This document shows positions 9,406-13,223 of a stretch of DNA of 64,000 nucleotides, one piece after another (position 1 is the first letter of the stretch; every line of letters starts with the position of its first letter). The stretch comes from Candidatus Heimdallarchaeota archaeon. GTDB taxonomy: Archaea; Asgardarchaeota; Heimdallarchaeia; Hodarchaeales; Hodarchaeaceae. Made by a program: the position numbers and the translations under genes. The stretch spans positions 505,173 through 569,172 of the forward strand of contig CP070695.1 of assembly GCA_020353515.1 (NCBI GenBank), written 5' to 3'. The notes below the pieces were generated by a model, which ran no database searches, was not told the origin of the DNA, and was given only the letters and a program-made list of their open reading frames with translations.

Positions 9406-10821
9406 GTGAGTAAGATTAACGAACGATCTCTAACACGAAGAGAAATTTTTCTCTATTCTACGAGTAATTTTGGGATTTCAATCATCAATGCCTCAATCTT
9501 AGGCTTTGTTTTATATTTTTACTTGACAGAGGGAATGACTGGACTTACTCTCGAACCTTTAATAATTGGGGCTTTAGTGGGAACTGCTCTCATGGTTGGT
9601 AGGATTGTAGATGCTTTTGTCAACCCCGTAGTTGGTTGGTTATCTGATAATACACGATGGAAAACATGGGGACGTAGGCGTCCTTTTGTCATTATTGGAA
9701 TTATTCCAATGACTGTAAGTTTTATTCTTTTATTCAATCCCCCCATCTTCGCGTTAACTCTTTTTCCAGGCGGTTTGGGGGAATTGATTCTTATTCTCTT
9801 CCTTTTCCTTATAATATCCATCTTTGATGCTTTATTCACATTTGTATTTGTTCCTATTTATGCTCTTTTACCTGAAATTGCTCCGACATCAGAAGAACGT
9901 ATCACCCTAGCCGTTTGGGGAAACATTTTTGCGATTCTCGCAAATATTATAGGTATTGTAATTGCACCTATTATGTACGATGAATTCGGATTCTCATTGA
10001 CGAGTATCATGTTAGGGATCATTGTTCTTGTTACTATCATTGCTGTTCTCCCTATCAAGGAATTACCAGTTGTTGATATGCAAAAACAACCACGAGTATC
10101 TCTTATTGAATCTTTAAGAACTAGCCTTCAAAACAAATCTTATCAGATATTTTTAGTAAATCAGATCGGTATGCAATTTTCGTTCCGAATATTAAATGCA
10201 GTAATGCCTTTCTTCGCGGTTAGTGTGCTTCTTCTTGAGCTCGATGAGCTTATGATCGTAACTGCACCTTGGGTTGTCGTAGCTATAATCAGTTTCCCAA
10301 TTTGGGGATTATTAGCAAAACCTCGATTTCTTGGGAAAAAAAAAGCCTATATTCTTTCAATGATGATATTTACATTCCCTCTTCTCCTTAATTTCTTATT
10401 TCTTGTCTCACCAGGTAACTTGATCATCGCTCTGGTAATGATCTGCCTCATAGGATTCGGGATGGGGGGATTATGGATTTTTCCACCAACTATTGTGGGT
10501 GATATCGTTGATGATGAAGAAAGACGATTGGGTCTGAGAAGAGAATCAATGTACTATGCCTTTCAAGAGTTCACTGAGAAGTTGGCTATCGCTGTGGCCG
10601 TTCTTCTGGAGGGTATAATACTAGGTTTATTTGTTATGGATAAAATTCTACATCCTGATTACCCTGCAGAATTAGGGGTTTATTACTATATCTACAACCC
10701 TTTGGGACCGATTTTACTTATGGGAATTGTAGCTTTCTTCCCAATGTTGCTTGCTTTACTAATTTTCTTTCAGTTCCCTGATGATTTGATCATTGAAGAT
10801 AAAATAACAGTGGAACCCTAA
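9406..10821 (+). CDS. MFS transporter, GPH (glycoside-pentoside-hexuronide) family
   Basis: About 12 TM segments; DAFVNPVVGWLSD, WGRRRPF and DIVDDEE...RRESMYY motifs. Confidence 0.88.
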   Translation: MSKINERSLTRREIFLYSTSNFGISIINASILGFVLYFYLTEGMTGLTLEPLIIGALVGTALMVGRIVDAFVNPVVGWLSDNTRWKTWGRRRPFVIIGIIPMTVSFILLFNPPIFALTLFPGGLGELILILFLFLIISIFDALFTFVFVPIYALLPEIAPTSEERITLAVWGNIFAILANIIGIVIAPIMYDEFGFSLTSIMLGIIVLVTIIAVLPIKELPVVDMQKQPRVSLIESLRTSLQNKSYQIFLVNQIGMQFSFRILNAVMPFFAVSVLLLELDELMIVTAPWVVVAIISFPIWGLLAKPRFLGKKKAYILSMMIFTFPLLLNFLFLVSPGNLIIALVMICLIGFGMGGLWIFPPTIVGDIVDDEERRLGLRRESMYYAFQEFTEKLAIAVAVLLEGIILGLFVMDKILHPDYPAELGVYYYIYNPLGPILLMGIVAFFPMLLALLIFFQFPDDLIIEDKITVEP

Positions 10822-11006
10822 ATTTTAGAAGTACTCACTCATCGTTTCTTCTCCGCAACAATATCAGCACTAGTAGAATTATTACTATAATAAGCTCTTT
10901 TTCATTAGTCAATCATCCTTCTCATAAAATTCAGGATAGCTTTTGATCTCTACTCATTTATCATTGGTGGTTTAACAATATTTCTTTCTCTCAATTATTA
11001 CAAATA

Positions 11007-11014
11007 CTTATAAG
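11007..11014 (+). promoter_or_regulatory. Putative archaeal TATA box of the small Zn-finger gene
   Basis: CTTATAAG preceded by A-rich CAAATA, about 25 nt upstream of the structured leader. Confidence 0.55.
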
Positions 11015-11032
11015 CAGAAAGCCAGTGTATTA

Positions 11033-11136
11033 TTCTGTGATGACTAGTTAATGTAGTCTCAATTTGATATGTGCTTCCTAACATATATCAAAACAGCTCA
11101 ACTAGCTGTTCTTTCTTAATAGTCATCATACAGGAG
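11033..11136 (+). ncRNA. Putative structured cis-regulatory 5' leader (three-way junction)
   Basis: P1 11036-11046/11120-11130 (11 bp, one GU); P2 11063-11073/11082-11092 (11 bp); P3 11093-11098/11104-11109. The structure abuts the AGGAG RBS at 11132-11136. Confidence 0.55.
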
Positions 11137-11145
11137 TTTATGATC

Positions 11146-11412
11146 ATGAGCGAAAAAGATACACCACCATCAGATGTAGAATTGGCGAAAGGGAAAGAAG
11201 GATTAGAACACGTTGAAACTAAAGCAGCAGTTTCGGAACGTAAGGTAGTACTTGTATGTAATAAATGTGGTGCTGAGCAAGATTTCCCAGTCTGTGAGGA
11301 ATGTGGAGAACCAATGGATTTTGAAGAAAGAAAGTTCAGCTGTGCCTCATGTGGGAAAGACGCAGCAGTTCCAGCGCATTGTGGTGAGCCCATGGCTCCT
11401 AAAATAGTATAA
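11146..11412 (+). CDS. Small Zn-finger protein (CxxC...CxxC...CxxC...HC) with N-terminal beta-thymosin/WH2-like segment
   Basis: AGGAG RBS 9 nt before ATG 11146; 88 aa MSEKDTPPSDVELAKGKEGLEHVETK...CNKC...CEEC...CASC...HCGEPM. Confidence 0.8.
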   Translation: MSEKDTPPSDVELAKGKEGLEHVETKAAVSERKVVLVCNKCGAEQDFPVCEECGEPMDFEERKFSCASCGKDAAVPAHCGEPMAPKIV

Positions 11413-11486
11413 GTCTACTTGAACATACTTCCATTTCATACTTATGGTTCCATCCCCATATCAAACCATTATAACTCCATTCCACC

Positions 11487-11501
11487 CTTTTATTTTTTTT
11501 C
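11487..11501 (+). terminator. Oligo-T archaeal terminator-like tract
   Basis: TTTTATTTTTTTT-type run about 75 nt after the stop at 11412, between convergent genes. Confidence 0.4.
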
Positions 11502-11540
11502 ACAAAGAATGCTTCAATTAAGAGATTTCATTTCACGTTT

Positions 11541-13223
11541 TTAAATTTGTCCTAATAGTAGAGGTAGAATACCTGTTAATTGAAGGATTAACAAATAGAT
11601 AAAACCAAGTACTAACAATACTGCGCTCAAAGGGGCCATTTTTTTTACATAATCCATAAAAGTGACTGGATGCCCTTCTTGTTGAAGTACTTGAACACCT
11701 ATGACTCCTGTAACTGTTCCAAAGGGAGTAAATCCTCCACCAAAGGTAACTGCATATAAAAGAGTAAACCACAGCAATCCTCCTACAGGAAATCCAAAAA
11801 CTGTCTGGCCAGAAAACTCTGGGTTATCTAGAAGAATGCGAATAACTTCTGCTAACGCAATTGTAATGGGAATATTTGCAACAATAGCACTAAGGATTGA
11901 AATAACCGTGATGATTATGATTGCAAGTATAAGAGGATCTCCACCAGATACCTGAAGCATTATTTGAGCTAAAACCTCAAGAACACCTGAGATTTGCAAT
12001 GCACCAACCAAAACAAAAAGACCAATGAAAAATAGGATTGAATCAAGTTCAATCTCATGGATTACACTATCAATGTCAGCTTTCGTGATAATAATAGCAA
12101 GGATTGCTCCCGTGATTGCAACAAATCCCACTGATAAGCCAATATTACTAGATAATACTAATCCAACTACCACAAATCCTAATACAACTGAACCTAGATA
12201 TAGCTTTCTTCTTGAGTCTACTACTGACCATTCATCCAAGAAACTTACTATTGTAGGATCGATTCTCATATCTTCTGTGACAGTAAGTTCTTTTTTAAAG
12301 ATCAAGAAAATATATCCAATTGATATTGCGATTGCAACTCCGATAAAGACAGAATTGACAAGAGAAAATGTCATAAATGGGATGTTACCAGCTTTCTTAC
12401 TAGCAATCAAGATACCAGGCAGAGAACCTATCACAGTTATTATTCCAGCCATTACAGTGGCTGCAACCTCGGCTAATATGTAGGGTTTAGGATTTAGATC
12501 CAGTCCACGTGTTACAGTGATAGTTATACTACTAAGTAAGATGATAGCGGTTGTATTATCCAGTAAAGCTGATAATATCAAGGTGAGGAAGAATACTAGC
12601 ACTAAGAGTCTTTTAGGTGTTCCCTGAGATGCTTTAATTGTCCGAATAGACACCATATCAAAGAGGCCAGTGTCTGAAAGCACTGCAACAAGTAAACTCA
12701 TCCCAAAAACAATAGATATAACTTCCCATTCGATAAATGAACCAAATAGGGCCACTTCAAAAAAGAGATCTGGAGCCTCTGCAAGTTCTACAAGCTGTTC
12801 TAATGTTAATGGCAATTTTCGACCAATTTCTTTTGATAACTGCTCTGCTGTTAAACTGTCCAAATGTTCATGTTCGAGCCCTCTTAAGTACTCTAAAGGT
12901 AATAACTGGTCGAGAAATATGATCATTAACATAACAGAAAGAGCACTACCAAAAAGAATGACCCGAAGCTTTTCTTCCTCCGCTAATGAAAGAAATATAA
13001 AAACGACAACAAAAAAAAGGACAATCAAAATTTGAACTTCAGTATGAGTAAAAACATGAGGAGGAGCAATAAATAACAAACTCAATATCACAGCTATACC
13101 AGTTAGAAAAATGGCAGGTATTGTAAATTTTTCTGAAACCTTTTCACCTTTGTCATCCCAAACCCAGAGAAAAACGCTAATGACAAAACCAATCACTGAA
13201 ACAATGGTTACCCAGGTTAACAA
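11541..13223 (-). CDS. ArsB/NhaD/SLC13-type (P-protein-like) ion transporter permease
   Basis: Polytopic; LSALLDNTTAIIL, LFFIGLFVLVGAL, SAIVANIP and GGGFTPFG motifs. Confidence 0.85.
   Translation of the reverse strand: MLTWVTIVSVIGFVISVFLWVWDDKGEKVSEKFTIPAIFLTGIAVILSLLFIAPPHVFTHTEVQILIVLFFVVVFIFLSLAEEEKLRVILFGSALSVMLMIIFLDQLLPLEYLRGLEHEHLDSLTAEQLSKEIGRKLPLTLEQLVELAEAPDLFFEVALFGSFIEWEVISIVFGMSLLVAVLSDTGLFDMVSIRTIKASQGTPKRLLVLVFFLTLILSALLDNTTAIILLSSITITVTRGLDLNPKPYILAEVAATVMAGIITVIGSLPGILIASKKAGNIPFMTFSLVNSVFIGVAIAISIGYIFLIFKKELTVTEDMRIDPTIVSFLDEWSVVDSRRKLYLGSVVLGFVVVGLVLSSNIGLSVGFVAITGAILAIIITKADIDSVIHEIELDSILFFIGLFVLVGALQISGVLEVLAQIMLQVSGGDPLILAIIIITVISILSAIVANIPITIALAEVIRILLDNPEFSGQTVFGFPVGGLLWFTLLYAVTFGGGFTPFGTVTGVIGVQVLQQEGHPVTFMDYVKKMAPLSAVLLVLGFIYLLILQLTGILPLLLGQI

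Follow-up and report, generated by a model that had tools for sequence, protein, structure and literature searches.

Several classes of structured RNA resemble, in one respect or another, the ~110-nt leader described here, which precedes a small gene of an Asgard archaeon. Autoregulatory leaders bound by protein include the k-turn in the 5' UTR of archaeal L7Ae, the Methanococcus L1 operator and the thrS and rpsO operators of E. coli. The Asgard leader shares with them a conserved folded element on the mRNA encoding a small protein, directly next to its ribosome-binding site, a fixed distance to the Shine-Dalgarno (SD) sequence and a helix, P1, whose invariant sequence suggests specific recognition; it differs from them in having no recognised k-turn and no rRNA or tRNA mimic, in encoding a product of no known RNA-binding family, and in being confined to part of one genus. 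Stabilising stem-loops at the 5' terminus are known from the ompA 5' UTR and from Bacillus leader hairpins that block the entry of RNase J or RNase E. Here, too, the first nucleotides of the predicted transcript are paired in 11/11 leaders, and the genome encodes three beta-CASP homologs as candidate 5'-to-3' RNases, but the 5' end pairs with a segment ~85 nt away, next to the SD, and does not form a simple terminal hairpin. A helix at the mRNA 5' end also presupposes that transcription starts at the R of RUGAUGAC, as a TATA spacing of 28-29 nt predicts. With three-way-junction riboswitches (TPP, purine) the leader has in common its location in a 5' UTR, a P1 beside expression signals and, in the window, a fold of several helices, yet it has neither an Rfam match nor a link to a metabolic gene, and there is no conservation of its third helix, of its junction bases or of any alternative expression platform. 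The heptamer RUGAUGA at the 5' end recalls archaeal C/D-box sRNAs, whereas its pairing with the partner GUCAUCAU is fully Watson-Crick and lacks a conserved CUGA, unlike both these sRNAs and the L7Ae k-turn; box D, C'/D' boxes and a k-turn are likewise missing. Full-text literature searches found no cis-acting mRNA structure in Asgard archaea, and to our knowledge such structures are almost undescribed in this group.

The locus lies in a window of 64,000 nt, by which we mean the whole stretch of DNA analysed, and comprises the following features.

11001-11014, + strand: archaeal promoter core, a BRE-like CAAA followed by the TATA box CTTATAAG (11007-14), from the orthologous alignment
11037, + strand: predicted transcription start, the G of GUGAUGAC, placed by its spacing from the TATA box
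11036-46 with 11120-30, + strand: helix P1, read from the sequence and present in the RNAfold minimum-energy fold
11037-11046, + strand: 5' arm of P1, family core GUGAUGAC (11037-44) to which the window adds UA, from minimum-energy folds
11040-11051, + strand: possible mini upstream ORF, AUG ACU AGU UAA, preceded by an in-frame GUG at 11037; its function is speculative
11063-11092, + strand: P2 hairpin, arms 11063-73 and 11082-92, loop CUUCCUAA (11074-81), from RNAfold and an inverted-repeat search (I8)
11075-11079, + strand: SD-complementary pyrimidines UUCCU in the P2 loop, a possible, unproven pseudoknot partner
11093-11109, + strand: P3 hairpin ACAGCU/AGCUGU (11093-98 with 11104-09), lineage-specific
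11120-11130, + strand: 3' arm of P1, family core GUCAUCAU (11122-29), from minimum-energy folds and alignment
11132-11136, + strand: SD sequence AGGAG, recognised by its spacing and invariant except in L048
11146-11412, + strand: gene for an 88-aa protein, ATG at 11146, with an N-terminal helix motif and then a nested double zinc ribbon (AlphaFold2)
11488-11500, + strand: T-run TTTTATTTTTTTT, likely transcript end, read from the sequence

An earlier, sequence-only reading of this DNA had drawn a switch-like leader folding into a three-way junction of P1, P2 and P3. All the helices it named, as well as the TATA box, lie where it had placed them, and the junction is exactly the minimum-energy structure that RNAfold returns for 11033-11148 (-30.7 kcal/mol). 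This structure is more stable than expected from dinucleotide shuffles, none of which was equally stable (z = -4.12; 0/200). The window sequence further allows UUAA/UUAA to extend P1 across a G bulge, an outer register of UUCUG (11033-37) with CAGGA (11131-35), and a local hairpin of GACUA (11042-46) with UAGUC (11054-58). Folding from the predicted start at 11037 gives -28.2 kcal/mol (z = -3.30). The opposite strand of the leader folds as well (z = -3.2), because the structure consists of inverted repeats. For a region hand-picked out of 64 kb, z values near -3 to -4 are on their own borderline, and the independent support for the fold lies, as judged from the alignment, in the conservation of P1 and P2 across 12 orthologous leaders. 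In 6/10 leaders, P1 drops out of the minimum-energy structure when the folded segment is lengthened by 60 nt of coding sequence. In the window, a pyrimidine tract UUCUUUCUU (11110-11118) is complementary to GGGAAAGAAGG in codons 16-19 (11192-11204), and this long-range pairing takes the place of P1 in the minimum-energy structure of the extended sequence; the tract is not kept in the other leaders.

Whole-genome, metagenome and protein-cluster searches recovered 10 distinct full-length leaders (the window, L003, L004, L005, L006, L007, L040, L042, L048 and L049), two that are 5'-truncated by contig ends (L050 and L051) and one variant leader (L044), every homolog coming from a single genus. 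The structural conservation that the sequence-only reading called for is found in P1 and P2, both of which are kept in the 12 orthologous leaders. In P1, 98.8% of cells are paired (columns 8-15 of the alignment with 99-106), and the changes are limited to G-U to A-U or G-C, U-A to U-G, and G-C to G-U. P2 is a hairpin of 8-11 bp present in 12/12 leaders, that of L042 being one column off in the alignment yet fully paired, and it carries two-sided changes at three pairs (U-A to C-G, U-A to A-U, and G-U to C-G or U-A). Taken together, P1 and P2 are paired in 92% of cells, a share that falls to 27-55% once the partners are displaced by 1-3 columns. For covariation, the score amounts to 0.216 versus 0.146 +/- 0.02 in shuffles, a value that 1/500 shuffles reaches, while the number of pairs with two-sided changes does not exceed that in shuffles (288/500), and the covariation rests on few independent events in 12 related sequences. 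The covariation asked for was accordingly obtained in part: P2 shows compensatory changes and the score exceeds that of 499/500 shuffles, whereas P1 shows no two-sided change in any of the 12 leaders. RNAalifold with RIBOSUM scoring recovered P1 and P2 from the 10 full leaders, which are about 70% identical; the structure conservation index was 0.88-0.97. G-U or U-G cells outnumber A-C or C-A cells by 24 to 1, an asymmetry that points to selected pairing in the RNA of the + strand and not to a DNA palindrome. Identity to the window is 62-95% in the leader, 40-74% at third codon positions and 42-61% in the spacer upstream of the TATA box; L006 matches the window at 95% of leader positions and 85% of coding positions.

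The distance from the 3' arm of P1 through the SD to the AUG is equally constrained, with 0 insertions or deletions in 12/12 leaders, and the conserved structure directly adjoins the translation initiation region, the SD starting 2 nt past P1 in all of them. Individual orthologous leaders fold with z values of -0.9 to -3.3, three of them near -1. When folded from the predicted start, 8/10 leaders contain both P1 and P2 in their minimum-energy structure, and the SD and AUG are unpaired in 8/10. The 5' terminus is base-paired in 11/11 leaders, either through long-range P1 or, in L044, through a local hairpin, and given the predicted start this paired terminus is, in the computed folds, the single feature common to all 11.

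The promoter adds a second fixed distance. The block CAAA-N-ACTTATAA is nearly invariant in 6 orthologous upstream regions, which become unalignable further upstream, and TTATAA is followed by the first base of P1 (RUGAUGAC) after a fixed 28-29 nt in 10/10 leaders. In the window, G11037 lies 26.5 nt downstream of the TATA box centre, which is the usual archaeal spacing between TATA centre and start. From this usual geometry and the invariant TATA spacing, the transcript is predicted to begin at, or within ~2 nt of, the first base of P1, so that transcription probably begins at G11037 or no more than about 2 nt away from it. With a start near 11037, bases 11033-36 would probably lie outside the transcript, and the outer register, which the sequence-only reading had let cover the ribosome-binding site, would probably be absent from the RNA. 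Genome-wide, TATA boxes show no peak ~27-32 nt before ATGs and hence no sign of leaderless genes; a calibration of the TATA-to-start distance on leaderless genes was given up for this reason. An internal promoter TTAATA at 11116-21, which would produce a leaderless mRNA at 11146, was rejected because TTAATA is present only in the window and L006.

Comparison of the orthologs places the true start of the 88-aa protein at ATG 11146 and not at ATG 11140, since the upstream codon reads ATA or ATT in five of them (L007, L042, L049, L050 and L051) and the SD spacing fits: GGAG starts at -13 from ATG 11146, and the genome-wide peak over 2316 long ORFs is at -13/-12. An in-frame N-terminal extension from GTG 11071 was dismissed as non-coding, as it meets a stop in L003. 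The assembly (4.94 Mb, 35.8% GC) is a 'single contig' of scaffolds joined by 100-N spacers, with 11,231 N in total, and contains no detectable 16S rRNA gene, so that its own anti-SD sequence is not readable. The gene is predicted to be monocistronic. Its upstream neighbour encodes an MFS transporter and stops 185 nt short of the TATA box, and the downstream one, which is convergent, encodes a CitMHS transporter (11541-13223, - strand). A convergent transporter of the CitMHS/ArsB type also lies downstream of the orthologs in several genomes (loci L041 and L044-L046), and the upstream neighbours vary between genomes (MFS transporter, alkaline phosphatase, others). Oligo-T tracts, such as the T-run between the two convergent genes, are archaeal terminators.

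Sequence searches against Pfam, NCBIfam and PDB returned no family above cut-off for the 88-aa protein. AlphaFold2 (mean pLDDT 82) models a short N-terminal helix followed by nested zinc ribbons, for which Foldseek found generic zinc-ribbon similarity only (best match the Cys-rich region of PriA, E above 0.1), and neither sequence nor structure searches revealed resemblance to a known RNA-binding family. The N-terminus, PPSD-ELAKGK-GLEHVETK, is conserved across orthologs (residues 1-32, window 11146-11240), and distant Heimdall-type orthologs carry DLKG-LKETQTK, reminiscent of the LKKTET motifs of WH2/thymosin proteins. The modelled helix covers residues 10-17 and precedes the LKKTET-like motif; Pfam gave no WH2 or thymosin match in the 88-aa protein at E <= 0.1.

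Beyond P1 and P2, the leaders diverge. P3 as drawn is present in the window and L006 only, with a different small hairpin at this place in L003, and the UUAA/UUAA extension is likewise limited to the window and L006. In 7/10 members, the GAACU region 3' of P2 pairs with an AGUU-type sequence 5' of P2 to form a helix, P1b, which encloses P2 and turns the leader into one long bent stem instead of a three-way junction. The structured leader of the sequence-only reading thus stands as far as P1 and P2 are concerned, while its three-way junction is specific to the window and its closest relatives. Its local hairpin, put forward as mutually exclusive with P1, did not hold up, as L003 lacks the segment and L004 and L005 leave it unpaired. 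An alternative helix between the 3' arm of P1 and the AUGAU spacer was discarded, being paired in 76% of cells against 78% in the slid control. The P2 loop (UUCCU or CUCCU, columns 47-51) could pair with the SD (columns 109-113) in 90% of cells; two-sided covariation is absent here, given an SD without variation, and other stretches of pyrimidines are about equally good partners for the SD, which makes a pseudoknot between P2 loop and SD only a possibility. Insertions and deletions occur in the junctions, and the 12 leaders share few invariant bases outside the helices.

These observations bear directly on the translational riboswitch or thermometer that the sequence-only reading had suggested, in which a metabolite, an ion (for instance Zn2+) or temperature would shift the RNA between alternative pairings and so expose or hide the ribosome-binding site. 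The window does offer material for such a switch, namely its three-way-junction-like fold, the GACUA/UAGUC hairpin, which enters the minimum-energy fold with coding sequence added, the UUCUG/CAGGA register, which folds if 11033-36 are transcribed, and a P2 loop whose UUCCU is widely pairable with the SD. We nevertheless consider it unlikely: the segment of the local hairpin is lost or unpaired in three leaders, the alternative helix that the P1 3' arm could form with the spacer does not exceed its slid control, and junction and loop bases are poorly conserved. The hoped-for match to a known RNA family failed to appear, cmscan of 10700-11700 against Rfam (E up to 10) giving no match at gathering threshold and, as sub-threshold noise, 7 matches with E 2.4-9.1 and 10-24 bits against thresholds of 38-90 bits, 6/7 of them on the minus strand. 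The element is also found before one non-metabolic gene only, in part of one genus, whereas known riboswitch classes are more widely spread. Since the SD and AUG are unpaired in 8/10 leaders folded from the predicted start, a thermometer or a default-off SD trap is unlikely; the SD would be covered only if 11033-36 were transcribed.

The invariance of P1, set against a P2 that covaries, invites further readings. A tandem in-frame RUG-AUG stands at the predicted 5' end of 11/11 leaders, exactly 28-29 nt past TTATAA in all of them including the variant L044, and could start a very short ORF that is masked by P1, so that ribosomes translating it would open P1 and change how accessible the main start is. 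The sequence constancy of P1 would suit this, but the leaders agree neither in its length (4-31 codons) nor in its stop position or peptide, the AUG has no SD before it, the genome gives no sign of leaderless initiation from TATA positions, and a chance AUG inside a conserved helix of 8 nt is not improbable; we hold such an upstream ORF to be very unlikely. At the level of DNA, TGATGAC and GTCATCA could serve a transcription factor as half-sites of an operator or as motifs near the promoter, with the RNA fold incidental. The 5' copy overlaps the predicted start site, a common position for archaeal repressors, P1 is conserved in sequence without two-sided covariation, the reverse strand folds well too, and the copies in L044 and L007 lie near each other as a palindrome, ATGACT-N6-AGTCAT. 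The 24:1 excess of G-U over A-C cells is, however, unexpected for a DNA palindrome, the half-sites are ~75 bp apart in most members with a spacer that varies by insertions and deletions, P2 covaries as RNA, and the motif pair is unique in the genome, which leaves no regulon, making a DNA element quite unlikely. An independent or processed small RNA, its ends paired by P1 and perhaps guide-like (C/D-box or H/ACA), would account for the match of the 5' RUGAUGA to the box C consensus, the ACA after P1 in the window, the closing helix that joins both ends of a ~95-nt unit and the weak sub-threshold matches to C/D snoRNAs in Rfam. We regard it as very improbable, given that a conserved CUGA box D, C'/D' boxes and a tandem G-A k-turn are all absent, P1 is fully Watson-Crick, and the Rfam matches (E 2-9) fall far under gathering scores and on the opposite strand. 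The ACA, moreover, is restricted to the window, L003, L006 and L040 (elsewhere UCA, CUA, UUA, UAA or AUA), and the interval between P1 and SD contains neither a T-run terminator nor a conserved second promoter, the TTAATA at 11116-21 occurring in two leaders only. A bulge-helix-bulge reading was set aside, its defining motifs being absent or not conserved.

The distribution of the element is narrow. A family covariance model (R1), run on 27 loci and 22 genomes of the genus, matched only the training leaders among the loci and found one copy per genome in 6/22 genomes, always preceding the ortholog; BLAST and regular-expression scans of the 4.94-Mb assembly revealed no extra copy and no regulon. 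In distant orthologs (L047 and L009-L016, 35-70% protein identity) the upstream regions are unrelated and the covariance model detects no element, from which it would follow that the gene does not need it. On these comparisons the structured 5' UTR is classed as lineage-specific and not in Rfam.

The variant leader L044 (505-603; also L045 and L046) shares the promoter and the 5' AUGAUGACU with the other leaders and has no 3' arm; AUGAUGACU is still paired, in a local 7-bp hairpin at the 5' end formed with an AGUCAU partner 6 nt downstream. In the same three loci, a second AAGUCAU overlaps the start codon, so that the 5' end could pair across the SD with the AUG. In three of the distant orthologs the unrelated upstream region is strongly structured too: that of L009 contains a perfect 10-bp hairpin, CUAGGCAGAU/AUCUGUCUAG, that of L010 a long-range helix of about 20 bp, and that of L012 a 9-bp helix bracketing the SD. 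A structured initiation region may be a recurring trait of the 88-aa protein's gene family.

Weighing these lines of evidence, we consider it very likely that the leader is a real cis-acting RNA element, and on balance favour its reading as a conserved, structured 5' UTR of a monocistronic mRNA, restricted to a subclade of one Hodarchaeales-type Asgard genus, that acts in cis at the post-transcriptional level. The fact that the leader ends right at the ribosome-binding site makes such a role likely. In the proposed model, the first eight bases of the transcript (GUGAUGAC) would pair with GUCAUCAU, ending 2 nt before the SD, and would thereby close the leader into a compact domain made of P1, the long P2 hairpin and a variable third element. 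With this domain formed, the 5' end would be paired, and the SD and AUG would remain single-stranded immediately next to a rigid helix. Such an arrangement could shield the 5' end from 5'-to-3' decay and insulate the ribosome-binding site from the pyrimidine-rich leader. Alternatively, a protein acting in trans, perhaps the gene's own zinc-ribbon product, could dock on the leader and, sitting 2 nt from the SD, would obstruct or trap the small ribosomal subunit; both modes may act singly or together. The invariance of P1 next to a covarying P2 hints at sequence-specific recognition, and a protein-binding role is possible on the pattern of conservation, although constraints from the start site, an upstream ORF or the DNA level could partly explain the invariance. 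Within a real element, a protein-binding operator is therefore a tentative reading, and a stability or insulator element an equally tentative one; control coupled to an upstream ORF is very doubtful, as is a small-molecule or ion riboswitch, a thermometer is more doubtful still, and the remainder falls to other functions.

Combining two of the candidate interactions, the leader might even represent a new Asgard translational regulator in which P1 masks the RUG-AUG mini upstream ORF and the P2 loop docks on the SD. We rate this combination as a very long shot; if true, output of the WH2/thymosin-like protein would depend on whether ribosomes initiate at the 5' end or are led by the SD. The reach of the finding is limited by its narrow distribution. 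Within that range, the element and its 12 homologs, with their comparative support and fixed geometry, provide a concrete entry into post-transcriptional control in Hodarchaeales, and a testable one, because the comparative support comes with a fixed promoter and ribosome-binding-site geometry and a defined set of homologs.
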